This document shows, piece after piece, positions 19,853-51,732 of a stretch of 64,000 nt of DNA. Origin of the DNA: an uncultured archaeon. GTDB lineage: Archaea; Asgardarchaeota; Thorarchaeia; Thorarchaeales; Thorarchaeaceae. The notes under the pieces are model-generated. The model worked only from the letters and a program-made list of their open reading frames with translations. It had not been told where the DNA came from and did no database searches. The translations under genes were made by a program, and so were the position numbers. Where the stretch lies: NCBI GenBank assembly GCA_964473825.1, contig CAYYQL010000002.1, forward strand, positions 192,001 to 256,000, given 5' to 3'. Numbering within the stretch: position 1 is the first letter of the stretch; each line of letters begins with the position of its first letter.

Positions 19853-19856
19853 GAAT

Positions 19857-19965: not shown

Positions 19966-20040
19966 TTTGGCAAGCCAGTTCGGAGCGATGTTTCACCACA
20001 TAGTATCCAAAATAAGGCTTTCCGTCCGAAAACAATCGGA

Positions 20041-20244
20041 TTACGGAAGAAGGTCTGTAAGTCCACTCCAACTGTCTTCCAATAGATGAAGTAATCCATT
20101 CACGACTTCTTGTGCCCACCCAGTGGCCTGCAATATCACCGCAATCACAATGGAAACAGTGACAACGGCGATACCAAGAAGCAGACTCTCTTCTACAAGA
20201 GGCCCGCCATTCTCATCAGAGAGCAATTTTCCCTTATCGCACAC
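20041..20244 (-). CDS. Flp/class III signal peptide pilin-like small protein
   Basis: LLSDENG|GPLVEE followed by a hydrophobic helix (LLLGIAVVTVSIVIAVIL). Lies downstream of a TadA-like ATPase. Confidence 0.65.
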   Translation of the reverse strand: MCDKGKLLSDENGGPLVEESLLLGIAVVTVSIVIAVILQATGWAQEVVNGLLHLLEDSWSGLTDLLP

Positions 20245-20315
20245 GGTCTTTTCACCCTGAACTCTCTTCTTCCCAGGGATATTTTAACTCCCCTAGAATC
20301 AAGACTCACTAGGTA

Positions 20316-22028: not shown

Positions 22029-22160
22029 TCCGGATGAGATATCCTCTCACTTTGTACAATACTCATATCGTGTCCAAGCTCGAAATCAGGACACAATAAT
22101 GATAATGGGGTAGTTTCACATTGGTGTTGAATATATGCAATATAATCTCCAACCAATCAG

Positions 22161-23189
22161 CTAACTTCTTCCGATTATGGTCTTCATCATTCCATAATGG
22201 TCTCTAATACTGTATTCAGCGACTTCAGTCGCTCTAGATGCCAACTTCTGCGTTAACACTGAACGTTTGCCAAAATCACTGGCTACTAAACGGTCTCCTG
22301 CGTATGCAGCTGAAACTGTGAAAATGAATGGATTACGTCCTCCTCGTGCTGTGGCCGGAATTCTATCAATTACTTCTAACATCTTAAGTCGGAGTCTGCT
22401 TTCATAATCTCTCAAATCCCATCCTCTTGCTTCTATCTTTTTCACAATCTTGGTGTTATTCATCAACATGGAGATGACCCGCGGAACATAGTCTTCCGGT
22501 TGGCGAATTTTGGGTGCATACCCTGTCACCGACCGAAGCCTAAGTGCTTCTCTGACCATTGCCCGTACACTGACTCTATGACCACACTTGTCAAAAACAT
22601 CGGCAATTTCATCCAACGTAATTGGTGCCTCCTCTTTGAACTCTCGAACTGCCATCAGAAGACAGACTGCTATCAGAAGGATATTATTGGTTACTTCCAC
22701 TTCTTCTTCTGTTAGGACTTTTTTGTAGAGATAGGCAGTACGATCTCGAACTTGCTCACTTAGCATAAGAAGTTTGGATGCCCGATTCAATGTTCTTAAT
22801 GCTCGATATTTTGCCTCATCTTTGCCAATCCTGATTCTGGTACTATAGACTGTTTTCAGTCGCTTGAACTTTCTCTGATTTCGACCCGACAATGGATGGC
22901 CGGCAACATCACGAAAGTATCTATCTCTATGAAAGCCAATGTAGCTCCCTAAACCATCTACAATATGCATCCTGTTCCCTAAGGAAACATACATTGTAGC
23001 ATCTGGTGTTTCTGCTCCACTTTCCTCTCCCATTTGGTAAGTTGGATACACATATTCTCGAGAAATCACCAATCCACAACTCGTACAAACAACATGCCCA
23101 CGATTTACCAGTAGAGGTCCATTACAGTCAGGACACGAATTCATCGTATTTCTGTGTTCATTGTTTGATCTATTCGCCAAAGACCACAC
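22161..23189 (-). CDS. tfb: Divergent transcription factor IIB (TFB) paralogue
   Basis: Zn ribbon CPDC..CTSCGLVI and two cyclin-like repeats with GRNP and TQ..ASRA.EV.E.SIRD.Y motifs. Confidence 0.75.
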   Translation of the reverse strand: MWSLANRSNNEHRNTMNSCPDCNGPLLVNRGHVVCTSCGLVISREYVYPTYQMGEESGAETPDATMYVSLGNRMHIVDGLGSYIGFHRDRYFRDVAGHPLSGRNQRKFKRLKTVYSTRIRIGKDEAKYRALRTLNRASKLLMLSEQVRDRTAYLYKKVLTEEEVEVTNNILLIAVCLLMAVREFKEEAPITLDEIADVFDKCGHRVSVRAMVREALRLRSVTGYAPKIRQPEDYVPRVISMLMNNTKIVKKIEARGWDLRDYESRLRLKMLEVIDRIPATARGGRNPFIFTVSAAYAGDRLVASDFGKRSVLTQKLASRATEVAEYSIRDHYGMMKTIIGRS

Positions 23190-23367
23190 CCAGTGTTCCT
23201 AGTAGCCCTATTACCTAACATTCTTTCAGAAGGCGAGTTTCCTACTATCAGGCTGAACTGTCTACTGGATAGGACTAGCTAGTTGATTGAAGGGGCATGA
23301 TAATACCACCCTGAATGAGGGTTAACCGAAAGTAATGTGTGTTTCTTCCACCTGACTGACGAATCTG

Positions 23368-23733
23368 CTAGAAGATTGCTATGTAAATCCGATTCCCAGT
23401 GAAGATTCGTTTCTTTGCTGCAGTGACCTTTTCCATTTCTAGTACTAATCTGAGTCCACCAAAAGTTCCTACAGCCTGTATCCCTTCTTCTAGTCTTGCC
23501 TTAAACACATTACCTTCAGCATAGAATTTCGCTTCATCTCCATTGGAGATTGGGCTATCATCAATAACAATATCAAGATTCTCTTTTGCATCAAACTGAT
23601 TTGCCAAGGCTTCTGGGACTTCTAAGGTCATCTCTAATCCCTCACTCTTCTCGGTAATACTTAGCATCATCAGGCCTTTGGTCTCGGTTTCTTCAATCGA
23701 GTCCAATTTGCTCCCTTTAATTCGAATAGCCAT
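23368..23733 (-). CDS. rpo8: DNA-directed RNA polymerase subunit Rpo8 (RpoG/Rpb8-like)
   Basis: OB-fold size (121 aa), with G.VFK and FGGL (Rpb8 SFGGL motif) and a C-terminal IYIAI. Confidence 0.7.
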   Translation of the reverse strand: MAIRIKGSKLDSIEETETKGLMMLSITEKSEGLEMTLEVPEALANQFDAKENLDIVIDDSPISNGDEAKFYAEGNVFKARLEEGIQAVGTFGGLRLVLEMEKVTAAKKRIFTGNRIYIAIF

Positions 23734-23853
23734 GGGTCTTTCAATTCTCCTCTAAGAGGTCTATCATTCTCGACTTGGAAGGATGAATTAAACCTGTCGT
23801 TGTCCTGGTGTGACTTTTTTAGGCATAGGTTTCACAGATTCTTGGTGAACTAG

Positions 23854-26469
23854 GTGAATCATCACACCAAAGCAAGCACGATAATCCCTGTGGCCCTCAT
23901 TCTATGTCTAATCGTGCCCGTCGACGCCTACTACTTCCAGTTCCAGTATTTTGAAACCGACCGAGCCGTCTATGAGGTCGGACAAACAATCAACATGGTT
24001 GCAAAACTCATAGCAGAATTCAGTGACGAAGGATGGTGTTTTGTTTCATTTGGAGTCGTAACAGACGTAGGCCCAATTTTTCAAGATGGGTACTACATTG
24101 AGTCTTCGTTAGACCCACAGTTCACAACAAGCTATTACACTATCCTCCCCAACGAAACGTACCCTGGTCTAAGCGGTACTATAGCCCACGTGATTTTCAA
24201 TGCAGAGATCTACGATGGATACTCTCAGAGCATTACCGAAACAATAGAAGTAAACATAACACGCGGCCATCTCTCTGTCCTCCCTCTAAGCGAACTGGAA
24301 CTCCCACATGGAATAGACTCAAACATCTCGCTGAAGATAGCAAGTACTCACAATGAGGACGTGGTTCTCCAAGAGCAAGTTCTCTCCTACCAAGTCAATG
24401 GCATAGACTCTTCATATACGGTCGAGGGTAATGAGAGCATCAATTCTCAAGGAATCGCTACTATACCTTTGAATTCTTCCAGCATCAATCCCGGGCACTA
24501 TGATCTGACTGTAAGCACAGAGGGAACAGACTCGTTTCTTCCTCTGGTGGACACACTTCCTATATACATCACCCCTCCCAACTCATCTTTATTGGTAAGG
24601 TCTAGTCCTGATGAAATTCATTGCCCAGACCATGAAGGAGTCGACATAGGAAGTGTTAACCTCCTTGTCGATCACCTCGGAGAAGATGGCGAAAGAATCA
24701 AGAACAGCACCATATCGTGGGAAACGGTCTTTTCACAGTCTAACTTCACGAATCACTTCAATGGAACTTATAGTGCTTCAGTGCAGTTTCCAGTTTCTCC
24801 CGGAAACTACACCATTCTCATCATTGCCAAGAATGAAATATATGCTTCAGTCAACATAACCAAGACAATATTGGTAACCAAACGTACGCCAGCAATTACT
24901 GTATCCTTTCCCAGTGGCTTGATAGCAGGCAACGAAACTTCATTACAACTGACTCTTACGGATTCACTCTTAGAAAGCCCTATACCAAGTCTTGAATTCA
25001 ATGTCACCATTTCCCTTAGTGACCAAGTCCTTTACAACAATGCTACCTCAGTTAATACAGATGGTTCCTTCAAAGCAGAATTCGAGATCTCTTCCGATTT
25101 ATGGGGTTTGGCAGACATTCGCGTTGAAACTTACGAAAATGAGAATTATACTGGTATGATTCTAATAGATACTCAAAGTGTCGAATTCGTACCAGAAGTT
25201 TGCTGGGTTCAAAACACGCCTTCTAACATTGGTCAGAACACAAGCATGTCAGTTACACTACTCAAGCCCGATGGCCAGAGTCTAGTAGGAATCACTGTTT
25301 CGCTATTTGATTCCTATGCGCAATTGATAGGCTCTACGCACACCGATGCAAATGGCACCGGTGAGTTTGTCTGGACCGTTCCAAGTGATCTTCCTTCTGG
25401 TTCTTATGAATACACAATTGTTACCACAGAAATGCCTTCTCAATTCGCTTTGGCAACCTTTCTGGCATTTCAGCTGTCACATTATGATCTATTGTCGGTG
25501 AGCCTTCAAGGAGAGGACTTTGACTGTCTGCGAGGAGAAAACTTCACACTGAATTTCCGGGTTGACTCCAATTGGAACGAAACTCAAAACCTACTATTGC
25601 AGCTTTCGTTTTCCACACTAATAACAATCAATCAGACTATCAAATCTGATACAGTATACTCTATTCAGATTCCGGTTCCAGCCGACTCTTCCCTTGGAAC
25701 GCATTCACTTACTATTGGCACACTAAATAATACATGCGTCCTCTCAGGGTCAGTCTTAGTTGACATCAACATCTTGGGGCGCATCATAGTGGCCATTGAA
25801 TCGGCTGAGGCCTTTTACGCCGAGAATCTTTCCATGACTCTCTCACTAATGGACGAATTCGGTCTTTCGGTTGACGAGTTCTCCATCACTGTATTCCTAG
25901 ACGGGCGGTTCGTAGATGTGATTCACAGATCGAATCAAACAATAGAAGCCATTGCAATATCTAATGCATTTTCCCCGGGAATTCACAATCTGACCGTAAC
26001 GATAAATGGAACATACTACAAATCAGCTGAGGATGAGGCTTTTCTGACAATCTGGATGAGAACGTCACTTTCTCTAGCCCTCAACCGAAACCAATTCAAC
26101 TTCTCCTGCAGTCAGGGCGATGAAATGACCTCAATCATTTCTTCTGGTTCTATCATCAGCCCCCCGCCAATCTTGTTTAATGGGACCACTTCTACACAAT
26201 CTCCAACCACTCGTTCTATCTCCCGGGATAATTGCCCCAAACTGAGTTCTGGAACCAATAATCGCTCAACTGATTCAGAGAAGGCTTTTACTTCTCTATC
26301 GGGGAACGGCCAGACGGTTCTAAGCCTCAGCGACTTCATTGACAGCATGGATGAGGCCGTAAACATGACTTCTTCGACTGTTCGAGAGGTGCAACCATAC
26401 GATACAATTCCCCATTCTGCCTTTTCAGGTCCTTTGATGATTGTATCAGTAAGAAGGCTTCGCCTCTGA
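23854..26469 (+). CDS. Large secreted Ig-like repeat surface protein; the last ~119 codons overlap korA antisense
   Basis: Signal peptide, ETDRAVYEVGQ, repeated PG.Y.L/I and TD.NG motifs, and many sequons. Confidence 0.7.
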   Translation: MNHHTKASTIIPVALILCLIVPVDAYYFQFQYFETDRAVYEVGQTINMVAKLIAEFSDEGWCFVSFGVVTDVGPIFQDGYYIESSLDPQFTTSYYTILPNETYPGLSGTIAHVIFNAEIYDGYSQSITETIEVNITRGHLSVLPLSELELPHGIDSNISLKIASTHNEDVVLQEQVLSYQVNGIDSSYTVEGNESINSQGIATIPLNSSSINPGHYDLTVSTEGTDSFLPLVDTLPIYITPPNSSLLVRSSPDEIHCPDHEGVDIGSVNLLVDHLGEDGERIKNSTISWETVFSQSNFTNHFNGTYSASVQFPVSPGNYTILIIAKNEIYASVNITKTILVTKRTPAITVSFPSGLIAGNETSLQLTLTDSLLESPIPSLEFNVTISLSDQVLYNNATSVNTDGSFKAEFEISSDLWGLADIRVETYENENYTGMILIDTQSVEFVPEVCWVQNTPSNIGQNTSMSVTLLKPDGQSLVGITVSLFDSYAQLIGSTHTDANGTGEFVWTVPSDLPSGSYEYTIVTTEMPSQFALATFLAFQLSHYDLLSVSLQGEDFDCLRGENFTLNFRVDSNWNETQNLLLQLSFSTLITINQTIKSDTVYSIQIPVPADSSLGTHSLTIGTLNNTCVLSGSVLVDINILGRIIVAIESAEAFYAENLSMTLSLMDEFGLSVDEFSITVFLDGRFVDVIHRSNQTIEAIAISNAFSPGIHNLTVTINGTYYKSAEDEAFLTIWMRTSLSLALNRNQFNFSCSQGDEMTSIISSGSIISPPPILFNGTTSTQSPTTRSISRDNCPKLSSGTNNRSTDSEKAFTSLSGNGQTVLSLSDFIDSMDEAVNMTSSTVREVQPYDTIPHSAFSGPLMIVSVRRLRL

Positions 26470-27245
26470 AGGATTTTATCGCGAAGTCTTTCAACTAATC
26501 TACGATGGACCTCGGAATCCGAAGTCTTTCTGTAGCCTCTCTCATCGTGCGTGGAACCTGTTACCAAGAGATTATGCCCATCACCAAAACGCGGCATTAT
26601 CGCATGTCCGTTGCCATCAATCTCTCCATACGGCTTCTTGCCCTTTCTGGCGAATCTTCTCTTTATAGAATAGTCTGTGCCCGAGTCTATGACTACTCTC
26701 TCACGGGAGTGACCTACTACTTCATCAGAAAGCAGTATGACCGGATGCCGAAAACACTCTGACAAAACAAAGGCCCTTCTAGTGAGTTCGAACGCTTCTT
26801 GTGCCGAATTAGGCGACAGTACTATGCTCTCATGATCTCCGTGAGTTCCCCATCTCGACTGCAGAAAATCTCCCTGTGCACATTTGGTAGCCTGACCGGT
26901 ACTCGGACCCACTCTCTGCACATCAACTACCACACAGGGTGTTTCGGTCATGACTGCATATCCTATGTTTTCTTGCATAAGGCTAAAACCAGGCCCCGAC
27001 GTGGCAGTCATGGCGAGATGTCCGCCCCACGAAGCGCCCACTACAGCTGATATCGCTCCGATTTCATCTTCCATCTGAAGATATCTCCCATTCATCTCCG
27101 GCAGTTTCTCTGCCATGATTTCGGCTATCTCAGATGCAGGGGTAATTGGATATCCTGCAAAGAACCTACACCCGGCCGCCAGTGCACCTTCTGCGCATGC
27201 CTGATTCCCTTGCCAGAAATGGACATGCGTTGTTCTATTAGACAA
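26112..27245 (-). CDS. korA: 2-oxoacid:ferredoxin oxidoreductase alpha subunit
   Basis: GNQACAEGA, FFAGYPITPASEI, QMEDEI, TATSGPGFSLMQE and QRVGPSTG motifs. Confidence 0.92.
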   Translation of the reverse strand: MSNRTTHVHFWQGNQACAEGALAAGCRFFAGYPITPASEIAEIMAEKLPEMNGRYLQMEDEIGAISAVVGASWGGHLAMTATSGPGFSLMQENIGYAVMTETPCVVVDVQRVGPSTGQATKCAQGDFLQSRWGTHGDHESIVLSPNSAQEAFELTRRAFVLSECFRHPVILLSDEVVGHSRERVVIDSGTDYSIKRRFARKGKKPYGEIDGNGHAIMPRFGDGHNLLVTGSTHDERGYRKTSDSEVHRRLVERLRDKILQRRSLLTDTIIKGPEKAEWGIVSYGCTSRTVEEVMFTASSMLSMKSLRLRTVWPFPDREVKAFSESVERLLVPELSLGQLSREIERVVGDCVEVVPLNKIGGGLMIEPEEMIEVISSP

Positions 27246-27495
27246 TCTTAAGACACTCAGTACTCTCGCCAGCTTGCCGAATAAAATAAGCCTTCAGTTT
27301 GGGCAACAGCTTCTCCGATAGTCTTTTATCGAAATCACCTGATTTTCCCTTCAGGCGGCCGTGGTCTAGTTTGGTTAGGACGGAAGCTTCCCAAGCTTCC
27401 AACCCGTGACGGTCGTATGACCGCGGGACTTCAAATCCCGGCGGCCGCACCATATCTTTGGTCATGTTTAAGAACCCATTTCCAGAATAGGCCAT
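27238..27495 (-). CDS. Small hypothetical protein, translationally coupled to korA
   Basis: 85-aa ORF whose stop overlaps the korA start. No recognisable motif. Confidence 0.45.
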   Translation of the reverse strand: MAYSGNGFLNMTKDMVRPPGFEVPRSYDRHGLEAWEASVLTKLDHGRLKGKSGDFDKRLSEKLLPKLKAYFIRQAGESTECLKIV

Positions 27496-27496
27496 T

Positions 27497-27570
27497 TGGC
27501 GAGTGATGAGTACAATGACCCCGATGAGTCAAGAAGACGATGATTTAGATCTTGAGTGACGAGCTCGCCA
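27497..27570 (+). ncRNA. Candidate box C/D sRNA
   Basis: Terminal stem TGGCGAG/CTCGCCA, then C box GTGATGA, 11 nt, D'-like CCGA, a GTC/GAC hairpin, C'-like ACGATGA, a guide-length spacer and a degenerate D box. Confidence 0.35.
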
Positions 27571-27667
27571 CCATTACTTTCGCTTACCTGTGCTCCTGGT
27601 GTACGATTAAGTGAACAGAGCGCAGAACGCTTTTAAGCATCTGCGTGACCTTCCATACTGGTCTGCA

Positions 27668-28867
27668 ATGTCACATGACTTCGTTGAAGACGAGCTGAGT
27701 CGACATAGTGTTTTCAAATCTGAACATTTCTTGTCAATCGATTATGTGCCAGAAGGCCTTCCTCATCGCGAAAAGGAGCTCCGAATGCTCGCTCAGACAT
27801 TCAAGACTCTCATCACTTCGCCTGGCCGAACAAGCATCAGACTCCTGATTGAGGGGCCCGTGGGCACGGGTAAGACAGCAGTGGCCAAGCGCTTCTCTGA
27901 GCAACTTGTACAAGCAGCCGATAGAAGAGACATAAGATTACACAAAGTTCACATCAATTGTCGTGTCAGTAAGAGTGTATATTTGGTGTACCTACGAATG
28001 CTTCGTGAGTTTAAACCTCGATTTCCAAAACGGGGCCACTCACCGCAGGAAATCCTTCAGATGCTTGTCGAGGTACTAGATAGGGAAGACAGGTATGTCC
28101 TCGTCATATTGGACGAACTAGACTATTTCATGAAGCAGCAGGGTGCGGACATTCTCTACGATCTGACTCGGTTAATGGATGACCGCTTGAACGCTCCTCA
28201 ACGAATTTCCATTATTGGCGTTGGTCGTCGAATTCCATTAGATAGTGATCTTCTTGATCAGAGTACCCGAAGCACTCTACAACGAAATATGCTACGATTT
28301 GACAAATACGACTTTTCCGCTCTTCTTGACATTCTAAGAGAACGAGTTTCCATGGCGTTTAAACCAGGTGCAATTATGAATGACACACTAGAATTGATAT
28401 GCAATATTGCATCTGAACGAGGCGATGCCCGATATGCAATCGAACTCCTGTGGCGTGCCGGCAAACAAGCAGACCGCGTTGAATCGGATGTGGTCATCCC
28501 TGACTATGCTCGCCAAGCAAAGGCCGATACTCACCCAGAACTCAGGAAAGAAGTCCTCACTACACTACCACTTCACAACAAACTGCTTCTTCTTGCTGCC
28601 ACTCGAAAACTGAAAGAGAATCGAGGGGCTTATGCAACTATAGGTGAAGTGGAAGAAATGTATGGTTCTATATGCGAGGAGTACGGGAAAGAACCCCGAG
28701 CACACACACAGGTGTGGGAGTGGGTTCAGGACCTGACTGCCCATGGTGTCATAGACACTCAACGTTCGGGTGCGGGTCAAAGGGGGCAGACCACAATGGT
28801 CGGCCTCTCAGATGTTCCAGCGCAAATGCTAGAACGCTTTCTAATTGAATTACTCGATAAGCGATAG
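27668..28867 (+). CDS. cdc6: Orc1/Cdc6 replication initiator
   Basis: LSIDYVP..LPHRE, GPVGTGKT, VHINC, ILDELD and GDARYAIELL motifs, plus a C-terminal wH domain (GQRGQT). The ORF track starts at 27611; ATG at 27668 is more likely. Confidence 0.96.
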   Translation: MSHDFVEDELSRHSVFKSEHFLSIDYVPEGLPHREKELRMLAQTFKTLITSPGRTSIRLLIEGPVGTGKTAVAKRFSEQLVQAADRRDIRLHKVHINCRVSKSVYLVYLRMLREFKPRFPKRGHSPQEILQMLVEVLDREDRYVLVILDELDYFMKQQGADILYDLTRLMDDRLNAPQRISIIGVGRRIPLDSDLLDQSTRSTLQRNMLRFDKYDFSALLDILRERVSMAFKPGAIMNDTLELICNIASERGDARYAIELLWRAGKQADRVESDVVIPDYARQAKADTHPELRKEVLTTLPLHNKLLLLAATRKLKENRGAYATIGEVEEMYGSICEEYGKEPRAHTQVWEWVQDLTAHGVIDTQRSGAGQRGQTTMVGLSDVPAQMLERFLIELLDKR

Positions 28868-28880
28868 GTTGCGATACTTG

Positions 28881-29168
28881 ATGACTGATGAAACCACCAC
28901 TTACATCCCCATTGAGGAGATTTTTTCGTCGAAAGGACGAATCAAGATACTGAAAGAATTGGCCCTTTCCCGCGAACTCAATATATCAGAACTATGCCGA
29001 AGAGTCAGCCTCAACCATACCACAACCAAGAAGCATCTCAATGCCCTCATGGATTCAGGACTCGTCGAAGAAAAGACATTCGGGCGGATTAAGATCTATA
29101 GATATAGAATCGAAGATTTGCGTGCTAGGTCTCTCAAGAACATGCTTGACCTTTGGCGTTCGACCTGA
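28881..29168 (+). CDS. ArsR-like winged-helix protein downstream of cdc6
   Basis: IFSSKGRIKILKEL...ELNISELCRRVSLNH.TT.KHL..L...GLVEEK.FGRIKIY. Confidence 0.85.
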   Translation: MTDETTTYIPIEEIFSSKGRIKILKELALSRELNISELCRRVSLNHTTTKKHLNALMDSGLVEEKTFGRIKIYRYRIEDLRARSLKNMLDLWRST

Positions 29169-42687: not shown

Positions 42688-43452
42688 TCAATCGTATACG
42701 TTATCTCCACCCATGAATAACCGCTGCATGTGACCATAGAGCATATCAAGTCCCATACGCGTTTTTGCGGAAACCGGTGTCAGGCTAGTGGCTCCACCCA
42801 AATCCTCTAGCATGCGAATAATTGACTGGGAATACTCTCTTGTGAGCCCCGAGGCTGAATTGTACAGCGCATCCTCCAACATGAAGGTATCCTCCGACCA
42901 TGTTACGATTTTCTCAATGGTTGCTTCTTCTAGTATGTCACATTTGCTTAGGATGTTTAGCTGAGGGAGATTAAACCGGATTGAAATGGAGAGACCTAAG
43001 AGAGTCGAAGAAAGATAACCCTCTGGTGTTTGTGCAATATTCGAGTCGAGAAGGTATACGGAGAGGGCGGGCTCAGTCCCAGTGAGACCAGTCACAAAAA
43101 GTGGCCCAGAGTTTCGATATGCAAAAAGCTCCATCTGCCCTGGGCAATCAACGATAACATAATCTGTTTCGCGTTCTAGTATATCATCACGGATATCTGG
43201 GAGATACCCGATTGCCATATCCATGGACGCAACCAGCGCTCCATTCGGCCCTAGACCGAACTTAGTAATCACTTCTCCATAGTCAACATATTCTCTAATG
43301 TCAACATCGCTTGTATAGGGTGGAGCATCAACACCAGGATCAAGATTCACAACGGTTGTGCTGATTTCTGTATCCACAAGCCACTTCTCAAGGGCCGCAG
43401 CAAGAAGCGACTTACCGGAGCCAGCAGTTCCAACTAGAAACACCAAGAACAT
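42688..43452 (-). CDS. GPN-loop GTPase
   Basis: GTAGSGKS, VNLDPG, GLGPNGA, DCPGQMELF and SKCD motifs. Confidence 0.95.
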   Translation of the reverse strand: MFLVFLVGTAGSGKSLLAAALEKWLVDTEISTTVVNLDPGVDAPPYTSDVDIREYVDYGEVITKFGLGPNGALVASMDMAIGYLPDIRDDILERETDYVIVDCPGQMELFAYRNSGPLFVTGLTGTEPALSVYLLDSNIAQTPEGYLSSTLLGLSISIRFNLPQLNILSKCDILEEATIEKIVTWSEDTFMLEDALYNSASGLTREYSQSIIRMLEDLGGATSLTPVSAKTRMGLDMLYGHMQRLFMGGDNVYD

Positions 43453-43578
43453 ATCGCTAATCTAGAACACAGAAACACGAGCACTCTTTGAGTCCTTCGG
43501 TCCGGTGAGTAACAAGGGGATATCATTCAAAATTGGGAAAAGACAAGTCTTATCTGTAATACATTCGGGGGTTGAATC

Positions 43579-44322
43579 ATGGAACAGAATGAGGCGCGAA
43601 GACGGCTTGCAGAGGCAATGGCAGGAGAAATCTGTCTTGCTGAAAATAATCCCGGTTCGCTGATGCGACGGTGGCGTGACCATTTCCAAATCTCCCAGAA
43701 GGACTTGGCAGAGCATCTTGACGTTTCTCCTTCAGTAATCAGTGACTATGAGAGCGGTCGAAGGAAGTCGCCTCGTGTGGATACCATAAGACGTTTTGTT
43801 GAGGGTCTGATTGAGATGGATGCAGCAAACGGGGGAAGGATTGCCATGGCTCTTGAGAAGCTCGTAGCTCCAGAAATTGCTTCAGATGCTATTCTTGATA
43901 GCCGAGAATTCGGATTTCCCGTTCCCGCCAGATTACTTGTAGAGAGGCTAGATTGCAAAGTGCTTACTCACAACAGTCTTCTCGATCGGGATATCTGCGG
44001 TTACACTGCACTGGATAGCGTAAAGGCAATAGTATCCCTCACTCCTCAGCAGCTATTGAAACTCTACGGCGGCACAACTCAGCGCGCCGCCATATTGACA
44101 CATGTTTCCACTGGCAGATCTCCAATGGTTGCAATAAAGGCCAGCCAAATCGGAACCTCCATTGCCGTCAAGCCTGCTGTGGTAATCATCCACGGTGTCA
44201 AAGAGCTGGATCCTCTGGCCATAAGAATCGCTGACAGCATCCATATTCCTCTATGCGTATCAGGGATAGAGTCCGCTGATGACTTGGTGCGCGAAATCAG
44301 ATCGTTTAATCCCGTGATGTAA
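43579..44322 (+). CDS. Archaeal XRE-HTH transcriptional regulator (COG1709-like)
   Basis: AGEI...NPG..MRRWR..F.ISQ.DLA..L.VSPSVISDYESGRRKSP and VSTGRSPMVAIK motifs. Confidence 0.88.
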   Translation: MEQNEARRRLAEAMAGEICLAENNPGSLMRRWRDHFQISQKDLAEHLDVSPSVISDYESGRRKSPRVDTIRRFVEGLIEMDAANGGRIAMALEKLVAPEIASDAILDSREFGFPVPARLLVERLDCKVLTHNSLLDRDICGYTALDSVKAIVSLTPQQLLKLYGGTTQRAAILTHVSTGRSPMVAIKASQIGTSIAVKPAVVIIHGVKELDPLAIRIADSIHIPLCVSGIESADDLVREIRSFNPVM

Positions 44323-44327
44323 AGAAT

Positions 44328-45638
44328 ATGAAGGCGTTTCAGATGGAATATTCAATCGAAGTCAACGATCCCATACATGGTTTCGTTGGTTTGACGGAAC
44401 TAGAATCAAAGATAATCGATTCCAGACCATACCAACGACTTAGGAGAATAAAGCAACTCTCCGGTGGCCATTTTGTCTATCCAACCGCCGAGCACACTCG
44501 GTTCGGCCACTGTATCGGCGCGATGTTTCTTGCAGGACTAATGGGAAATCAACTACTCCCCATGATTGACCTAGGAGAAGAAGCATTGCAGGAAATCCGC
44601 GTTGCCGCTCTCTTGCATGACATAGGACATGGCCCTTTCAGCCATGTTTTTGAGGAGGTTCTCGTAGAAAGTCGTAATCTCAATCACGAAGATGTTACCG
44701 AGTGGATTATTCGAGAAAGCGAGATTGGTGACCTACTAGAAGACGCAACTATCTCAAAGGCCCGTGTTGCAGACTTAGTGCGAGGTCGCCGTCTTACAAA
44801 GACTGATGCAATAGTGAGTGGAATTGTGGCGGGCCAAGTCGACGTAGACAAGATGGACTATCTGATTCGTGATTCTTTCTATTGCGGTGTCAGCTATGGT
44901 TTGGTTGATATTCATCGCCTCATCAAGAGTGTAGAGGTTTCAGATGACTATACAATCCAGTTCGATATCGCTGCACGAGGTGCACTAGAGTCTTTCTTGG
45001 TCGCTCGCTATGAGATGTTTCTCAATGTCTACTATCACAAGACAGTACGAAGTGTTGAGGTTATGCTTGTCAAGCTCATGACATCAGCAGACGCTGTTCT
45101 ATCATTAACCGCCTTTGAAGAACCGGAGGACTTCTTGGTTCTCGATGACATCTCTTTAATATCCCGTGTTAGACAATTGGACCCTTCTATATCTCCTGAG
45201 GCTGGAGAAGCAGTCCGGATGGTGAATATGCTCGACTCTCGTACACTTTACAAATCTGCATTCGAGAAGGTGCTTCACACACAAGACAGATTCGTTTCAA
45301 AAATTCTTACGAAGAAAAAAGTTCGAGCCAGTATCGAGGAAGAAATTGCAGAGAGTGCGGATGTTCCAGTAGAAGACGTCATTGTAGATGTTCCTACGTT
45401 ACCATCAGTGCCTTATAATCCACATCAACTAGATCCGATGGAAATTGGCATATTCGAGATAATAGATGGAAAGAAAGTACCGCAGAATCTATCAGATTAT
45501 TCGAATATAGCTGAAATGATGAAGGGCTACTTGGACGTAATCAGAGTATACACTTCGGATGCAAATCGACACAAGGTTGGACGGGCATCTCGCGAAATCT
45601 TCCAAGAGGTGCCTACAGCAGCTTTGATTCATATGTAA
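44328..45638 (+). CDS. HD-domain phosphohydrolase (COG1078, SAMHD1/dNTPase-like)
   Basis: DPIHG, QRLRRIKQL, HTRFGH, LLHDIGHGPFSH, DVDKMDYLIRD and VYYHKT motifs. Confidence 0.92.
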   Translation: MKAFQMEYSIEVNDPIHGFVGLTELESKIIDSRPYQRLRRIKQLSGGHFVYPTAEHTRFGHCIGAMFLAGLMGNQLLPMIDLGEEALQEIRVAALLHDIGHGPFSHVFEEVLVESRNLNHEDVTEWIIRESEIGDLLEDATISKARVADLVRGRRLTKTDAIVSGIVAGQVDVDKMDYLIRDSFYCGVSYGLVDIHRLIKSVEVSDDYTIQFDIAARGALESFLVARYEMFLNVYYHKTVRSVEVMLVKLMTSADAVLSLTAFEEPEDFLVLDDISLISRVRQLDPSISPEAGEAVRMVNMLDSRTLYKSAFEKVLHTQDRFVSKILTKKKVRASIEEEIAESADVPVEDVIVDVPTLPSVPYNPHQLDPMEIGIFEIIDGKKVPQNLSDYSNIAEMMKGYLDVIRVYTSDANRHKVGRASREIFQEVPTAALIHM

Positions 45639-45786
45639 GTAATTAGGCTGCTGCCCACTTCCTCCACTTATTCGTCTGTATTCAAGTTAATGCGATACAG
45701 CATATTCTCTCACGTCCTGTGTGGAGATTAAATAGTATCAGCAAGGATTCTAGGATAGCATACAAATCTCCCCAAGAGGCCATCCG

Positions 45787-46734
45787 ATGAATGATGAACT
45801 GAATGAAACTCTCCAAGACATCAAGATGATAAGTGGAGTTGAGAATGTCGTCCTCGTACAACGTGATGGGCTGCCCGTTGCCAGTGCTGGGGTCTGGTTC
45901 AGCAAGGACGAAGTATTTGCAGTTGCATCATCAACCTGTGCTATCTTTGGGGTGGCACGTCTAGTACATGGGAATTTCAAGTATCTTCTTATGGAATCTG
46001 ATACATCCAAAGTCTTTCTTGCTTCTTTGCCTAACGACGAAAATTACTTCCTCACAATTACAACAGCGCCTAGGGTCAACCTCGCCGCGCTTTTCATTGA
46101 GATGAGGGCTAATCTATCCCAAATCTCGTACTTACTGAGACAGAGTGTGAACGGTCATCTTCCACCACTGAGATCTTACAGCAACAACGAAACACAACAG
46201 ATTCTCCAAGGATTTGCTGTATCTGATGATGTAGCTACATCCTATTCCACCTCTCGATCAATAATATCTCTGGACAGGTCACAAGCATTGACTCTACGAA
46301 GTGTCCTTAGACAGGTACATGATAGTATTCCTGGAGTTGATTCCGTCTTCTTGGCACTAAATGGAGGCGTTAGGGTTTCTTTGAACGGTTTTACGAATGA
46401 TCGGTTAGCTGCCATGTCATTTGCACTACATGACGCATCAGAGAGAGTCGTGAGAACCCTGAGAAATAGCTCACTTCAGACTGTGCTCTGTGAAACTGAT
46501 AAGACACGCCACTTCATCTATTCAGTTCCAAATGGTGTCTTCTCTCTCTGGGTAGACCGAGATAGTCAAAAACTGGGCCTCATGCGTCTGTTACTTAAAC
46601 ACTATATCTCCGAAGCCAGAAGAATCCTAGAAACTGCAACCATACGCCAGCCTTCTATTCCTGATGACCTGAAAGAGCTTCTTCTCTCTGCTGGTCCTGA
46701 GAGAAGTCTTCTGTTTGCGGGGCGAGAACCGTGA
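45787..46734 (+). CDS. Tandem roadblock/LC7 (MglB-like) domain protein
   Basis: Domain 1: L.D...ISGVENVVLVQRDGLPVAS...AVASS. Domain 2: LRQV..SIPGVDSVFLA.NGG...RLAAMS.ALH, ending LGLMRL. Confidence 0.8.
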   Translation: MNDELNETLQDIKMISGVENVVLVQRDGLPVASAGVWFSKDEVFAVASSTCAIFGVARLVHGNFKYLLMESDTSKVFLASLPNDENYFLTITTAPRVNLAALFIEMRANLSQISYLLRQSVNGHLPPLRSYSNNETQQILQGFAVSDDVATSYSTSRSIISLDRSQALTLRSVLRQVHDSIPGVDSVFLALNGGVRVSLNGFTNDRLAAMSFALHDASERVVRTLRNSSLQTVLCETDKTRHFIYSVPNGVFSLWVDRDSQKLGLMRLLLKHYISEARRILETATIRQPSIPDDLKELLLSAGPERSLLFAGREP

Positions 46735-47651
46735 CCTATTCAATCCTCAAAATGATTGAAATCATGGGGAATGAGTTTTCGCTTCTATTGAACTCTATTC
46801 TCATCCGTATTCCTGTAGTTGTCGTTGGACAAGACATAGAGTTGATTGATGATGTTTCTAATAGCCTTACAAGTCTCTGTCCACATAGACACAAAATCAT
46901 GTTTTGGCGGGACTTCACATCAGAAGACGCGATATCTGCTGTTTGGGAAGAGGAAAGACATAACCACGAAGTTAGTAGAACTGTTGTATGCTCCTTGGCT
47001 TCAAACTTACGGCTTGCTCTAGACAGAATCGGAAAATTTAGTGGTTGGATTTTATCGCTGCCTTTGGGTTCCAAGATATTCGGGGCCACAATCAACGAAC
47101 GCGAAATTGGAAATATAATAGAGCAAATTCGTTCAGACTCTAAGAACTGTGGTATTCTGAGAGTCCATTCACCTTCAGCTCTAAGCTTTCATACTTCAGA
47201 ATCTCCCGCCAGCAGTCTTGCTCTCGAGAAGGGGATTGTAGACAAGATACTGGCACGAAAGCGACAATCTCTGGAGCGAATCAAGAGGCTTCTCCGAAAA
47301 TCACTACGTGCAGTGGATGGTGCTGCAGGACTGGTGTCCACAGTACTTGCTCTCGATGACGAGTCCGATAAGATAACTCAAGATGTGTTCAGGGAGGAGA
47401 TAAGCAGTTATGTGCATGCCGCTCGAAGGGCAGTTACAATCCTGTCCAGAATTCGATTAGCAAGAGAACTAGGTGCTCCTACAACCCTTACAGAACGCAA
47501 TCTCTTGGAGGCTGTGGGCTGGGAATCGGGAAACCTAGGCGATATGATTCAGCTCATTCGGGCAGAATGGCATGAAGATTTCTCAGATTGTGTCAAGACC
47601 GGCACGCTCTCTGGACTTGGAGCTTGGGTGGACAGCATGTGGGGAACATAA
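46731..47651 (+). CDS. Putative DENN/folliculin-C-terminal-like protein
   Basis: N-terminal G.EFSLLLNSIL.RIPVVVVG.D.ELI..V..SL.SLCP resembles the core helix-strand-helix of DENN modules. Coupled (GTGA overlap) to the roadblock gene. Confidence 0.5.
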   Translation: MTYSILKMIEIMGNEFSLLLNSILIRIPVVVVGQDIELIDDVSNSLTSLCPHRHKIMFWRDFTSEDAISAVWEEERHNHEVSRTVVCSLASNLRLALDRIGKFSGWILSLPLGSKIFGATINEREIGNIIEQIRSDSKNCGILRVHSPSALSFHTSESPASSLALEKGIVDKILARKRQSLERIKRLLRKSLRAVDGAAGLVSTVLALDDESDKITQDVFREEISSYVHAARRAVTILSRIRLARELGAPTTLTERNLLEAVGWESGNLGDMIQLIRAEWHEDFSDCVKTGTLSGLGAWVDSMWGT

Positions 47652-47667
47652 TTTTGAGGTGAAACGA

Positions 47668-48249
47668 GTGATAATCGACTATGGCAACAAGACGATTGGC
47701 TTAAAAATAGTCTTCTTTGGGCCAGCAATGAGTGGGAAAACTACATCTGTTCGGTGGCTCTTTTCAGCTCTAGAATGTGCAGACCGATTGACTTCAATCG
47801 AGAACACTGTTGGACGGACCATGTTCTGTGATTTTGGAACTATTCCCATACCACTAGATGATGTCTGGAATCTGAATGCACATGTTTGGTCTGCCACCGG
47901 GCAAGATTTTTACCGATCCACTAGGGAGGTTGTTTTAGTGGGCGCAGACGGAGTGATTTTTGTTGCTGATGCTCAACGTCATCTCCTCGATGATAATCTT
48001 GCAAGCTGGAACGAGCTTATGACTCTAGTTGATGAAGGAACCGACCCCCTTCCGGTGGTCGTCTGCCTCAACAAACAGGATTTGTCTAATGTTGTTGGTG
48101 AGGAAGAAATCAGACACTACTTGAGGATACCTAGTTCTATCACAGTATTTGAGAGCATCGCAAAAGAGGGATATAACATAATTGAGGCTTTTCGCTTACT
48201 ATTCCAGAATGCCATGCGAGCAAGTGTCGTAGCACAACAGATGCAATGA
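47668..48249 (+). CDS. MglA-type small GTPase
   Basis: KIVFFGPAMSGKTT, GRTMFCDF, WSATGQ (no Asp in G3), GADGVIFVAD, NKQD and SIAK motifs. GTG start at 47668 follows GAGGTG. Confidence 0.9.
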   Translation: MIIDYGNKTIGLKIVFFGPAMSGKTTSVRWLFSALECADRLTSIENTVGRTMFCDFGTIPIPLDDVWNLNAHVWSATGQDFYRSTREVVLVGADGVIFVADAQRHLLDDNLASWNELMTLVDEGTDPLPVVVCLNKQDLSNVVGEEEIRHYLRIPSSITVFESIAKEGYNIIEAFRLLFQNAMRASVVAQQMQ

Positions 48250-48377
48250 CACTATGCAACCCATGTTACAGCTGCCAATAGTTCCGACACTGTAGACAAG
48301 AGCACTGACATAGCAAATTTGGCACTGTTTCAGTACATTGTTCACTTTGATATTCAGCAGGCGCAGCAAGGGGGATC

Positions 48378-48439
48378 ACACATTTCTTACATATGGAAAC
48401 TTGGTTCCTTTAGAGATATGTAAGATTCTGGTCTTCTGG
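48378..48439. repeat. 62-bp dispersed direct repeat with internal dyad, copy 1
   Basis: 57/62 identical to 53597-53658. Contains TCTTACATAT-N21-ATATGTAAGA. Confidence 0.85.
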
Positions 48440-48649
48440 AGTTTGATTCACCCCCTCGTACCGGTTCGCTGATGAAGGGTTGCAGAGAGCAGTCTGTGCC
48501 CTTTCCAGAAGCAGTGATTAGAACATGATTTGTTCTAGGAAACCCCGGCACGTTTCCATGAGAGCCTTAGTTGAAAATAAAGGCACGCATCTATAAGGCG
48601 ATTCAATGTTAGAGATATAATCTTACCTAGTAGTCCATCTGCAGAAATG

Positions 48650-50053
48650 CTACGACTTTTCGTTTTCGATCTCATTCAGCACGTTGGTCATTGTCTTCTT
48701 AGCGGTCGCCGCCAGTGTATCAACTGACTGCTTGGTTCTGGCCCCCACATAGAACCTTGCCTTCGGTTCTGTTCCTGATACTCGGACCAAGAGATAAGAG
48801 CCATCGTTTCTTTCAATCCGTACACCATCCACCTCGAGAATCTGGTCGATATTGGAAACCTTCTCGGGTAGAGCCTTACGGACTCCTTGCATGAAGTTCT
48901 GCTTCAGAGAATCAGGGCATGTGATGAAGTCCCGTACCATAGGATACTCTGGTATCTGTTTCATTAGTTCAATGCAGCTTCCATCCCCCTCATTGACAAC
49001 AAGCTGAGCAAGACGAGCCGCTCCTGCGATACCGTCCATCCACCCTCCAAGCTCCGTGAATATTGGCTTCCAGGGCTCGGAGGCGAATACAATCTCGTCA
49101 TAGCGGAGTGCAAGTTCCTCCTGAAGCGAACCTAAGGAGCGGCGCACCAACTCGCCACCATGAGATTTCACAATCTCATCTATGACATTGGAGGTATCAA
49201 TGGATACAACGACCAGACCACCATCTTGTTCCTCTAGCTCGTACTTTGCAAACAGAGCGATGACTCGATTCTGATCTATGAAGCGTCCCTCTTCGTCAAT
49301 GACTGCCAAACGGTCGCCGTCGCCGTCATGACATACTGTGACTGCAAAGTCCGACTGTGCAGCCATATTCATTGTGAACTCCAGATTACGAGGTGACGGT
49401 TCAGCTGGCCTACCCGGGAAATAGCCGTCTTGGTGGGAGTTGATTGTCAGAACTGAGAAACCCAAATCACGAAGAAGGTGTGGTGTATAATTAGATGCAG
49501 CGCCGTTTGCCGCATCGACAAGAATCTTACAGCTTCCCTTGACATCACCTCTGTTGAGTATCATGTTCCTGATTCGCTGCATGTATGATATGCGCGTATC
49601 GTGAGAAGACTTCGTCCCCAGCAGATTCCAATCTGCGACAAGAAAGCCCTCATCGAAATAATGCGTTTCTATTTCTACCTCTTCTGACCTCAGGAACTCG
49701 CGCCCTTGCTTGAAGAACTTGAACCCATTATCTGAAGCAGGATTGTGACTCGCCGTAATTACGACGCCTATGTCAATACCGTCAATAGAACTCTGGAAAC
49801 CAACTGCAGGCATTGGGACTATGCCGAGGTCGACTACATCAACACCCGTGGACAGCAGGCCTGATACGAAGGCGTGATGGAGCATCACACGTGAGGTTCG
49901 TGCATCAGTGCCCACCGCAACGACCCCACTTCCTTTGAGGGTACTGCCAAGTGCGCGGCCTAGATTCATCGAGCTGACCGGATTCACTTTTTCGAATCCC
50001 CCTCTGATTCCTGATGTTCCAAAGAGCTTCTGTTTATCGTCTGTGTGGACCAT
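48650..50053 (-). CDS. glmM: Phosphoglucosamine mutase / phosphomannomutase family
   Basis: LFGTSGIRG, ITASHNP, DGDGDR and RVSGTEP motifs. Confidence 0.85.
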   Translation of the reverse strand: MVHTDDKQKLFGTSGIRGGFEKVNPVSSMNLGRALGSTLKGSGVVAVGTDARTSRVMLHHAFVSGLLSTGVDVVDLGIVPMPAVGFQSSIDGIDIGVVITASHNPASDNGFKFFKQGREFLRSEEVEIETHYFDEGFLVADWNLLGTKSSHDTRISYMQRIRNMILNRGDVKGSCKILVDAANGAASNYTPHLLRDLGFSVLTINSHQDGYFPGRPAEPSPRNLEFTMNMAAQSDFAVTVCHDGDGDRLAVIDEEGRFIDQNRVIALFAKYELEEQDGGLVVVSIDTSNVIDEIVKSHGGELVRRSLGSLQEELALRYDEIVFASEPWKPIFTELGGWMDGIAGAARLAQLVVNEGDGSCIELMKQIPEYPMVRDFITCPDSLKQNFMQGVRKALPEKVSNIDQILEVDGVRIERNDGSYLLVRVSGTEPKARFYVGARTKQSVDTLAATAKKTMTNVLNEIENEKS

Positions 50054-50165
50054 ATCCTAGCCTCCGCATCTTCTGTATCTCGTTTCTTGTTCGTGACCGT
50101 TGTCAATCAACCTTGTCCTAGCATAGACTGTTGAAGGAGAATAGATTCTACGACCTTAATAACTG

Positions 50166-50756
50166 GTGTCCACACTGAACTACATGCACTGCCAACATCT
50201 ATGTTTGATCTCAAGGGCGATTCCAGACACAACCTCGTATAAGCAAGGAGAGCATCATCTTGAAAGCCGGCGGTTGTGGTCAATAGCCAAGAACGAACAA
50301 GCCCATTCTCTTCTTCGGGAACCGGCAATAATTGAGCTGAGTAGAAGAAGAGAAACCGGGGCAATAGAACTGTGTGATGCCTTGCTCAATTCCCAGAATG
50401 TAGAAGATTGGTTTGTTGCAGTCCACGCTTTGGTTGCAATGGACACACCCGATGCGATTGAACGGCTGATCCTCCTTTATGCCAATTCAAAAAACTGGAA
50501 GCGACGATATGTCTTCATGTCGATTGGGAGGGTTCTCACATTGGAGTTTATCCGACCTTTCCGGCAAATGGCAAAAGACTTTTTGATGGCTGAGATGCTG
50601 GATGTGACAGGGTGGACTAGAACCGCCATCTTTGCAATGAAATCGATATGTGATTGCTATGGCATTAGAATATTAGAGAGAATGCAACCGAGCTGTCAAG
50701 CAGCACATCGTCAACTCCCGGAAACCGAAAATACTGTTGTTATTCAGAAAGCATAG
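50166..50756 (+). CDS. Hypothetical protein with a HEAT-like helical repeat
   Basis: DALLNS...W..AVHAL..M....AIERLI.L pattern. Start uncertain. Confidence 0.45.
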   Translation: MSTLNYMHCQHLCLISRAIPDTTSYKQGEHHLESRRLWSIAKNEQAHSLLREPAIIELSRRRETGAIELCDALLNSQNVEDWFVAVHALVAMDTPDAIERLILLYANSKNWKRRYVFMSIGRVLTLEFIRPFRQMAKDFLMAEMLDVTGWTRTAIFAMKSICDCYGIRILERMQPSCQAAHRQLPETENTVVIQKA

Positions 50757-50757
50757 A

Positions 50758-51732
50758 TTAGTTTCTAGGTAGAGCGAGATCCGCTATGTCTTTTGCAGAT
50801 TCTCCAATTCGTGCCAATATATCCAAGATTTGAGTATGACGCTGAGATAGCTGCTCTTCCTTAGATACGAGATGGTGACGAACTGTATCTATAAGCACCA
50901 ACATCTCTTTCTCGGCATCCATGACCCACGCAACCTTATCAGAATCAAACCTGAATAGATTGGAGAGAGATCTTGCCAGCATTTCCTTGATAATCTCGCT
51001 GATAGATTCAATATCCTTCACCAGTTGCTTGGGAACAGGTTGGCTCGTTAGACCGGCTATATCCACTGCAAGATCCGCAATTCGTTCAATGTACTGGACC
51101 ACAAGACGATAATCCAATGCCTCGACAGGAGCAATCCCCATCTTGTCCGCCATGCTAGGATACTGAATTGCAGATCGTAGCTCTCGAACTATCAAGAAGA
51201 ATAGGCGATCAACTTCCTCATCCCGATTTGCAACATCTTTGGCAAGCTTACTATCCCCTTCGAAATATGCCTGTAGAGCATCACGAAGCATTCTGGTCGC
51301 TATCAGATTTGTTCGCTTCATTGCTTTTTGAACAGGGATTGTAGACGGATCCACAAGGCACTGAATGAGCAGCATCTGATCTTCTTCATCAGTGACTTCC
51401 AGAGCAACGAAGCGCTTGATGATACGTTTCAGTTCTTCTCTTTGTTCGTTTGTAATGGGTTTATCGCTTACAACACGAATCTCATCAAATCCGAGTAAAT
51501 ATTTGCTCGTAATGCCCCACCTCAAATTTGATTGGATTCGAATCTCCGTCTTTCTGCTTTCATCCGACTCACGCATTCTTGGATCGATAATCAGACAACC
51601 ATCTTCCTTCTCAGACACAATAACAGTGTCGCCTTTTTCGAGTTTCTGCCGCAAGACCCAGTCTTTTGGTAGCACTACAAGGTAGGAACTACCTGTTCTC
51701 CCGCCAGTTTGCTGAAGTTTCCTAGTTTCCAT
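50758..51732 (-). CDS. phoU: Phosphate uptake regulator (AbrB + PhoU domains)
   Basis: ETRKLQ.TGG..SY.V.LPK.W (AbrB), and DEEVDRLFFL and ERIADLA (PhoU). Confidence 0.9.
   Translation of the reverse strand: METRKLQQTGGRTGSSYLVVLPKDWVLRQKLEKGDTVIVSEKEDGCLIIDPRMRESDESRKTEIRIQSNLRWGITSKYLLGFDEIRVVSDKPITNEQREELKRIIKRFVALEVTDEEDQMLLIQCLVDPSTIPVQKAMKRTNLIATRMLRDALQAYFEGDSKLAKDVANRDEEVDRLFFLIVRELRSAIQYPSMADKMGIAPVEALDYRLVVQYIERIADLAVDIAGLTSQPVPKQLVKDIESISEIIKEMLARSLSNLFRFDSDKVAWVMDAEKEMLVLIDTVRHHLVSKEEQLSQRHTQILDILARIGESAKDIADLALPRN

Follow-up and report, generated by a model that had tools for sequence, protein, structure and literature searches.

Here we describe a window of 64,000 nucleotides (nt) from an uncultured archaeon of the Thorarchaeota (contig CAYYQL010000002.1, positions 192,001 to 256,000), which lies on contig 2 of a 3.27-Mb metagenome-assembled genome (MAG) that is 96% complete. 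Three tightly packed open reading frames (ORFs) on the + strand at 45787-48249 are the Thorarchaeota copy of a conserved Asgard operon of Roadblock, DENN and small-GTPase genes and, in our assessment, probably encode a self-contained three-part GTP switch. Gene structure, domain folds, sequence motifs and conservation of the operon were established in the analysis. The genes and the element upstream of them, numbered by window position, are:

45787-46734, + strand: g1, ORF of 315 amino acids (aa) with two Roadblock/MglB-like domains
46731-47651, + strand: g2, ORF of 306 aa with a stand-alone core-DENN + d-DENN fold
47668-48249, + strand: g3, ORF of 193 aa counted from a revised GTG start, MglA-type small GTPase
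45717-45735, + strand: upstream element CTGTGTGGAGATTAAATAG, from an alignment of 12 Thorarchaeota upstream regions

A preliminary description, made from the letters of the window alone, had noted three coupled genes for a tandem Roadblock protein, a folliculin/DENN-like protein and an MglA-type GTPase. Our analysis confirmed this observation and supported the reading of the individual parts. The module is real and well conserved, and it is not new, since an Asgard operon of the same three components was already predicted by Liu et al. (bioRxiv 10.1101/2020.10.19.343400, Fig. 5b; Nature 2021). Because the operon is in print, the window serves as a clean Thorarchaeota example of it and adds three sharper definitions: the GTPase is MglA-type and not Rab-like, its partner has two Roadblock domains fused in one pseudo-dimeric chain, and no longin domain is present in the DENN protein. 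In addition, the DENN protein is confined to about one third of the Asgard families sampled here. The operon matters as one of the few Asgard cases in which candidate regulators can be assigned to a small GTPase on genetic grounds, and it joins a bacterial-type MglA switch to the DENN fold. To our knowledge, this fold is otherwise known only from eukaryotic regulators of membrane traffic and nutrient sensing. The three proteins are small, have no predicted membrane segment and carry obvious catalytic residues, which should make their biochemistry straightforward.

The longest ORF call for g3 covers 47572-48249 and begins at ATG 47572. Because the g3 orthologues of 22 other genomes begin with MI(I/Y)DY at the position corresponding to GTG 47668, and because GAGGTG is located 7-13 nt 5' of this codon, translation most likely starts at GTG 47668 rather than at ATG 47572, and the spacer between the g2 stop codon and g3 is therefore 16 nt long. 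Together with the 4-nt overlap of g1 and g2 (GTGA), this spacing agrees with the tight coupling that the preliminary description had pointed out. The HD-domain gene ahead of g1 ends 148 nt before it. In this spacer, approximately 55 nt 5' of the g1 start, CTGTGTGGAGATTAAATAG is near-invariant in the 12 Thorarchaeota loci, while the remaining spacer has diverged. The element combines a TATA-like TTAWATA box with a fixed TGTGTGG block 5' of that box (pattern TGTGTGG-N-G-N-TTAWATAG). Judged from its sequence, it is probably a promoter of the operon of the BRE/TATA type (BRE, B recognition element), and the fixed TGTGTGG part may represent a variant BRE or the site of a regulator; g1 would therefore be the first gene of the transcription unit. 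Downstream of g3, a gap of 400 nt is followed by a convergent phosphoglucosamine-mutase-like ORF. No RNA run covering 45600-48400 was found; all 16 sequencing runs with the locus were DNA, mostly from microbial mats and sediments.

Comparison of g3 with the sequences of solved structures placed it closest to MglA. The MglA proteins of Myxococcus xanthus and Thermus thermophilus were matched with expectation values (E) of 1.4e-27 to 4.4e-27, as against 2.5e-10 for the best Rab (Rab7) and about 7e-6 for the best Arf. In Pfam, the Arf, Ras and Roc families all scored above their cut-offs, and Gtr1_RagA failed (20.2 bits against a cut-off of 22). The motifs of g3 comprise the P-loop GPAMSGKTT, switch I GRTMFCDF, G3 SATGQ and G4 NKQD. 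In the alignment with M. xanthus MglA, GRTMFCDF falls on DRTLFFDF, the switch I with its intrinsic Arg, and SATGQ aligns with MglA TVPGQ, an Asp-less G3 with the catalytic Gln; these are the hallmarks that had led to the MglA assignment in the preliminary description. When residues are counted from a start at 47659, no variation is seen among 23 orthologues at R53, T54, D58, A79, T80, G81 and Q82, and the P-loop and NKxD motifs are invariant or nearly so in the same orthologues, which come from nine families. The 193-aa protein consists of the G domain alone and has no C-terminal Roadblock domain. By sequence, g3 is thus MglA-type, its similarity to MglA exceeding that to Rab, Arf or Rag.

The whole g1 protein matched Pfam Robl_LC7 at E 2.2e-10. 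When the domains were scanned alone, domain 1 was matched at E 1.1e-5, and domain 2, at E 1.4e-3, failed the cut-off. The two halves form an internal repeat with 29% identity across 73 aa (E 2e-5), and a scan with NCBIfam returned nothing for g1. The AlphaFold2 model of g1 (predicted local distance difference test, pLDDT, 77.5; predicted template modelling score, pTM, 0.74) contains two alpha-beta-beta-alpha-beta-beta-beta-alpha units at residues 1-121 and 160-286, which are joined by a low-confidence linker of about 40 aa and followed by a short C-terminal helix at 293-300. Structural searches for g1 and g2 were performed with VIA-align against 48,161 PDB representatives. For g1 residues 1-121 they returned MK-D1 Roadblock3 (Z score, Z, 12.6; root-mean-square deviation, rmsd, 1.5), a Streptomyces Roadblock (12.4) and M. 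xanthus MglB (12.3), and for residues 160-286 T. thermophilus MglB (Z 11.4) and an MK-D1 Roadblock (10.7). Matches to LAMTOR proteins (LAMTOR2/3) and to Rag C-terminal domains were in the range of Z 8-10.6. All 23 orthologues in the alignment, and all families, retain both Roadblock domains. The pTM of 0.74, obtained for a chain with two domains, gives a hint that their arrangement is fixed, and they would probably pack like an MglB dimer. The protein is described here as a fused pseudo-dimer, an MglB-like tandem Roadblock protein, in agreement with the two Roadblock domains per chain seen in the preliminary description.

The best Pfam match of g2 was Folliculin_C at residues 4-53, which is sub-threshold (E 0.06-0.2; 11.6-13.4 bits against a cut-off of 27); NCBIfam returned nothing, and phmmer of g2 against PDB sequences gave zero matches up to E 10. 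An exhaustive profile search found only 77 matching representatives among 1.84 billion proteins, and a 39-sequence alignment drawn from this search was used to build the AlphaFold2 model (pLDDT 88.1, pTM 0.85). The model consists of an alpha/beta domain at about residues 1-160, corresponding to core-DENN (cDENN), and a helical domain at about 164-285, corresponding to d-DENN (dDENN). Foldseek placed folliculin (FLCN) first (E 1.3e-3, probability 1.0) and listed C9orf72/SMCR8, DENND1B, DENND10 and DENND1A as well. VIA-align, which is independent of Foldseek, gave a top five of DENND10 (Z 13.5), FLCN (13.1, twice in the list), C9orf72 (11.6) and SMCR8 (11.3), with DENND1A at Z 9.6. The alignment with DENND10 comprised 188 residues, and that with the C-terminal DENN domain of FLCN (345-558) 186 of 199 residues at rmsd 3.4; these DENN-module matches, including C9orf72, SMCR8 and DENND1A, all cover residues 1-285 of the model. 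Among neighbours in the ESM Atlas were the protein's own Thorarchaeota cluster, DENND11, Avl9, a PF02141 DENN cluster and a Heimdall cluster partly carrying Pfam Folliculin, with template modelling scores (TM) of 0.49-0.56 between g2 and the DENN clusters. Residue 1 of the model aligns with residue 345 of FLCN and residue 157 of DENND10; the 306-aa chain is taken up entirely by cDENN and dDENN, so that there is no space for a u-DENN/longin lobe. The predicted structure thus assigns g2 a DENN fold without a longin domain, as expected from its preliminary description as folliculin/DENN-like; the condition named there for rejecting the idea, a middle protein with no DENN fold, thus did not apply. 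R26 and P28, located just ahead of the first strand, are invariant across the family, and the diverse g2 alignment contains no conserved stretch of 7-10 columns. Ferritin-like helices were also matched by the g2 family profile at E 0.007-0.65 and were judged spurious.

To describe the distribution of the operon, 201 Asgard genomes in 27 families (numbered f1 and onwards, f9 being Loki-type) were sampled. A g2 profile built from Thorarchaeota only matched in 103 of the 201 genomes and a diverse profile in 108. The g2 family is present in nine of the 27 families and its spread is bimodal, with families being either near-saturated (f1 42/43, f9 36/40, f12 15/19, f3 4/4, f15 4/4, f24 3/3, and one of one in each of f2, f6 and f8) or having no match. 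The 84 genomes of the remaining 18 families gave no match; among these families are f5 (0/21) and f22 (0/10). Close g2 homologues mostly carry Candidatus Thorarchaeota labels, and distant members are labelled Baldrarchaeia, Sigynarchaeota and Promethearchaeia, all annotated as hypothetical protein. Similarly, the best 80 g3 loci in a species-level genome collection nearly all carry Thorarchaeota labels; the few exceptions are given as Promethearchaeota, Hermodarchaeota or uncultured archaeon. The preliminary description had raised the conservation of the operon across Asgard archaea, and phmmer mapping of the loci around g2 matches showed g1, g2 and g3 arranged in this order and in one orientation in 49 of the 50 loci, which represent nine families, with junctions that overlap by 4-20 nt or leave a gap of less than about 25 nt. 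This conserved order with tight junctions argues that the trio is a unit under joint selection and not a chance neighbourhood. The exception is a lone g2 homologue in one f9 genome (L037:3354-4250, genome G138), which has no adjoining g1 or g3 and is flanked by two unannotated ORFs and by a gene for pyruvate formate-lyase.

Based on these folds and motifs, we infer complex formation, the assignment of GTPase-activating protein (GAP) and guanine nucleotide exchange factor (GEF) roles and a cellular output as follows. The switch would be g3, an MglA-type GTPase that brings its own catalytic Arg in switch I and Gln in G3. The platform would be g1, with two Roadblocks in one chain doing the job that is done in MglB by a homodimer. 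MglB dimers are established to act on MglA (Miertzschke 2011). On the model of MglA-MglB, the single-chain pseudo-dimer g1 would bind to the switch regions of g3 and serve as its GAP partner by ordering the intrinsic Arg and Gln. MglA is engaged by one MglB C-terminal helix, whose part may be played by the single C-terminal helix of g1. DENN domains are established Rab GEFs, as exemplified by DENND1B and Rab35 (PDB 3tw8), and g2 would most probably be the exchange factor of g3, as DENND1 is for Rab35. Alternatively, g2 may be a regulatory scaffold that completes, in trans and jointly with g1, the architecture of platform plus DENN found in FLCN-FNIP and C9orf72-SMCR8. One joint prediction of the g1+g3+g2 complex, with g2 as the scored partner, gave interface scores (interaction prediction score from aligned errors, ipSAE) of 0.01 and 0.00, which we take as evidence neither way.

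Several known systems share parts of this arrangement. The MglA proteins of M. xanthus and T. thermophilus (PDB 3t12, 3t1q, 6izw, 6h5b) resemble g3 in the intrinsic switch-I Arg and the Asp-less G3 with Gln, at about 35-40% identity, and in both cases the GTPase gene adjoins that of its Roadblock partner, the g1 domains matching MglB at Z 11.4-12.3. MglB, however, is a homodimer of one-domain chains, whereas g1 holds two diverged Roadblock domains in one chain; bacterial MglA systems are not known to have a DENN-fold partner and fill the third role with RomR/RomX, whereas the operon described here has g2 and an archaeal host. With FLCN-FNIP2 and C9orf72-SMCR8 (PDB 6nzd, 6ulg, 8dhb, 7mge, 6lt0, 7o2w) the operon shares a DENN module, a double platform of the Roadblock/longin type and a small GTPase, and the superposition of g2 on the cDENN+dDENN halves of these proteins gives Z 11.3-13.1. 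In those complexes the longin is fused to the DENN part and two chains pair, whereas here the platform g1 and the DENN protein g2 are separate and there is one DENN. The catalytic arginine finger and GP motif of FLCN-FNIP, GATOR1 and C9orf72-SMCR8 are located in the longin domain (PMC12290439); the FLCN-type GAP arginine thus resides in a domain that is missing from g2 and from the rest of the operon, and the clients are Rag or Arf GTPases rather than the MglA-type g3. DENND1A/B (PDB 3tw8, 6ekk), DENND10, DENND11 and Avl9 have the DENN fold in common with g2 (Z 9.6-13.5; TM 0.49-0.56). DENND1A/B and other DENN proteins act on a small GTPase, as g2 would on g3; g2 differs from them in having no significant sequence similarity and no u-DENN/longin lobe, and its GEF role is predicted. 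In Ragulator-Rag, Roadblock pairs likewise form a GTPase platform, and the g1 domains match those of LAMTOR and Rag (Z 8-10.6). Rag GTPases, however, carry a C-terminal Roadblock and form heterodimers, whereas g3 has no Roadblock and is not of the Rag family; the Ragulator heterodimer is replaced by the single chain of g1, and the operon has no membrane anchor of the LAMTOR1 type.

In Liu et al., the Asgard operon is predicted to consist of a 'LAMTOR1-like' Roadblock protein, a 'Rab-like' GTPase and a DENN protein, is likened to FLCN/Ragulator, and its GTPase is noted as non-Rag; the three components, their putative operon and its conservation across Asgard archaea are those found here. The two accounts differ in that the GTPase is called 'Rab-like' there and is MglA-type here, and in that the paper refers to 'most Asgard archaea', whereas the g2 family was present in nine of 27 families in our sample. 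The tandem Roadblock and the absence of a longin domain, both seen here, are not mentioned in the passages of the paper that were consulted. Regarding other published reports, MglA-like GTPases and Roadblock proteins were listed in Asgard genomes by Tran et al. 2024, who noted that the matching of GTPases to regulators can rarely be read from Asgard genome layout; a 2026 Myxococcus paper modelled an MglA/MglB-like pair from Thorarchaeota; Vargova et al. kept MglA groups apart from Asgard Arf-related GTPases; and a 2025 survey (PMC12290439) tied longins of the FLCN/SMCR8 type to Heimdall proteins.

A number of points weigh against our interpretation of the operon as a DENN-containing GTP switch. 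The g2 protein has no significant sequence similarity to DENN families (Pfam DENN, Folliculin_C and related), the 39-sequence family profile matched no DENN chain among PDB sequences, and the DENN homology therefore rests on predicted structure. In VIA-align, secretion ATPases are a further match of the alpha/beta half of g2 (Z 9-10), and the longin domain that g2 lacks is used by eukaryotic DENN GEFs as well as by FLCN-type GAPs. The interaction of g1 and g2 with g3 and the enzymatic activities of the Asgard operon members are predicted, and the broader functional and evolutionary proposals of the preliminary description (a complex, GAP/GEF roles of g1 and g2, and a precursor of Rag/Arf regulation) likewise stay predictions. 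The equation with the operon of Liu et al. is based on gene content and not on accession numbers, because the GTPase is called 'Rab-like' in that paper.

The resemblance to ATPases leads to the question as to whether g2 is a degenerate, nucleotide-free P-loop ATPase-like domain derived from secretion or Tad-type ATPases, its DENN likeness being convergent. GspE, VirB11, FlaI, PilB and CpaF chains did match g2 residues 1-160/230 at Z 9.1-9.8, TadA/CpaF clusters occur among its ESM Atlas neighbours, and AAA+ and clamp-loader chains occur in its Foldseek list; however, the secretion-type ATPases (Z no higher than 9.8) cover the alpha/beta lobe only, whereas DENN modules score 1.5-4 Z units above the ATPases and cover both lobes (1-285). 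The ESM Atlas TM values point in the same direction (0.49-0.56 for DENN clusters against 0.38-0.40 for TadA/CpaF), the family consensus has no Walker A motif, and the sole Pfam hint is to Folliculin_C, which together make an ATPase origin very unlikely. It is somewhat less difficult to envisage, although still improbable, that the operon is a direct forerunner of the FLCN-FNIP/Ragulator-Rag (or C9orf72-SMCR8/Arf) machinery, with the same longin/Roadblock GAP working on a Rag/Arf-like GTPase. The DENN domains of FLCN, C9orf72 and SMCR8 are among the best structural matches of g2, Roadblock platforms (LAMTOR2/3 and Rag C-terminal domains) match g1 at Z 8-10.6, and the FLCN/Ragulator analogy was itself proposed by Liu et al. 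Against such direct descent, g3 is MglA-type, has no C-terminal Roadblock and falls short of the Gtr1_RagA cut-off (20.2 against 22 bits), and g2 has no longin domain, the seat of the FLCN/NPRL2/SMCR8 arginine finger (PMC12290439). The g2 family was also not found in 18 of the 27 sampled families, and separate longin-DENN 'Folliculin' proteins occur in archaea of the Heimdall group.

The gene neighbourhood offers another explanation, in which the trio is a polarity or assembly switch of a nearby Tad-like pilus/VirB4-HerA apparatus, an archaeal counterpart of the control of type IV pili by MglA-MglB, with g2 being an effector or adaptor and not a regulator of the nucleotide cycle. We consider this unlikely. 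A precedent is that MglA is reported to govern type IV pilus polarity in Myxococcus. In the window, a Tad-like set (a transcription factor B (TFB) paralogue, TadA-like, T2SSF-like and Flp-like genes), a VirB4/HerA-like gene, Orc1/Cdc6 and a gene with a helix-turn-helix (HTH) domain of the ArsR type were located at 13837-29168, among them:

13837-17550: VirB4/HerA-like ATPase
20316-22028: TadA-like ATPase, single copy
22161-23189: TFB paralogue

Tad-like, VirB4/HerA and Orc1/Cdc6 genes occur about 5-25 kb from the operon in five Asgard families, with varying internal arrangements (loci L051, L054-L056, L058-L059, L062 and L143-L145). Wherever a TadA-like gene and g2 were on one contig in genomes other than Thorarchaeota, they were 5.7-16 kb apart (31 of 31 genomes: f3 2, f12 10, f9 18, f24 1), and in Thorarchaeota the distance is 5-25 kb. 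A VirB4/HerA-like ATPase is located 5-9 kb from g2 in f9 and f12. The gene order in f12 is TFB-like, TadA, two T2SSF-like genes, a 75-aa Flp-like gene, FtsZ on the opposite strand and then g1-g2-g3, and in one Thorarchaeota genome (L062) a POR-alpha-like gene stands alone between the pilus cluster and the operon. However, Orc1/Cdc6 and the ArsR-type neighbour belong to the same block in f3, f9, f12 and f24, and the linkage of operon and pilus genes, although real, therefore need not be functional; a slowly rearranging, origin-proximal block accounts for it equally well as functional coupling does. Furthermore, TadA-like genes are present in families that gave no g2-family match (f5 19/21, f19 6/6, f16 5/5), and in f15 and f8 the TadA-like gene and g2 are on different contigs. 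If the pilus explanation were true, a DENN-fold third component of such a switch would later have been turned into a eukaryotic GTPase regulator.

A possible signal shared by g1 and the TadA-like gene was also considered. The 13-mer TGGWGRTTAWATW, the core of the putative g1 promoter, occurs exactly twice in the 3.27-Mb genome, 5' of g1 and 5' of the TadA-like gene, and TGGAGATTATATT (22139-22155, - strand), located 5' of the latter, is the sole other genome-wide match to this core. About 1.5-2 matches are expected by chance, and the 13-mer is absent from the 400 nt 5' of TadA in 20 other Thorarchaeota genomes. As it is not conserved in these 20 relatives and the match is probably due to chance, we rejected it as a regulon signal.

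Directly 5' of the operon, the window encodes an HTH_3 protein and an HD/HD_assoc_2 protein (43579-45638). Synteny of these two genes with the operon holds within Thorarchaeota (L060-L062), and the pair was not found near the operon in the mapped loci of other families. On the other side, a 62-bp hairpin element is located at 48378-48439, inside the gap after g3; an Rfam scan of 43000-51000, which included this hairpin, identified no RNA family.

Two further observations were made in the Loki-type family f9. Just past g3, on the opposite strand, f9 loci carry a second small GTPase, for which Pfam indicates an Arf-like protein (E 3e-18) and whose similarity to g3 is only distant:

L051:6170-6823, L042:1684-2439, L046:1308-1997 and L047:1641-2330: second small GTPase in f9 loci
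L048:1118-1798, L050:1705-2400 and L058:17926-18681: second small GTPase in further f9 loci

In the same family, a 16S rRNA gene is located about 270-350 nt 5' of g1 on the opposite strand (L053:11130-12621, L059:9261-10752). Many MAG contigs end 1.5-2.5 kb from g2, probably because the 16S rRNA gene adjoins the operon in f9.

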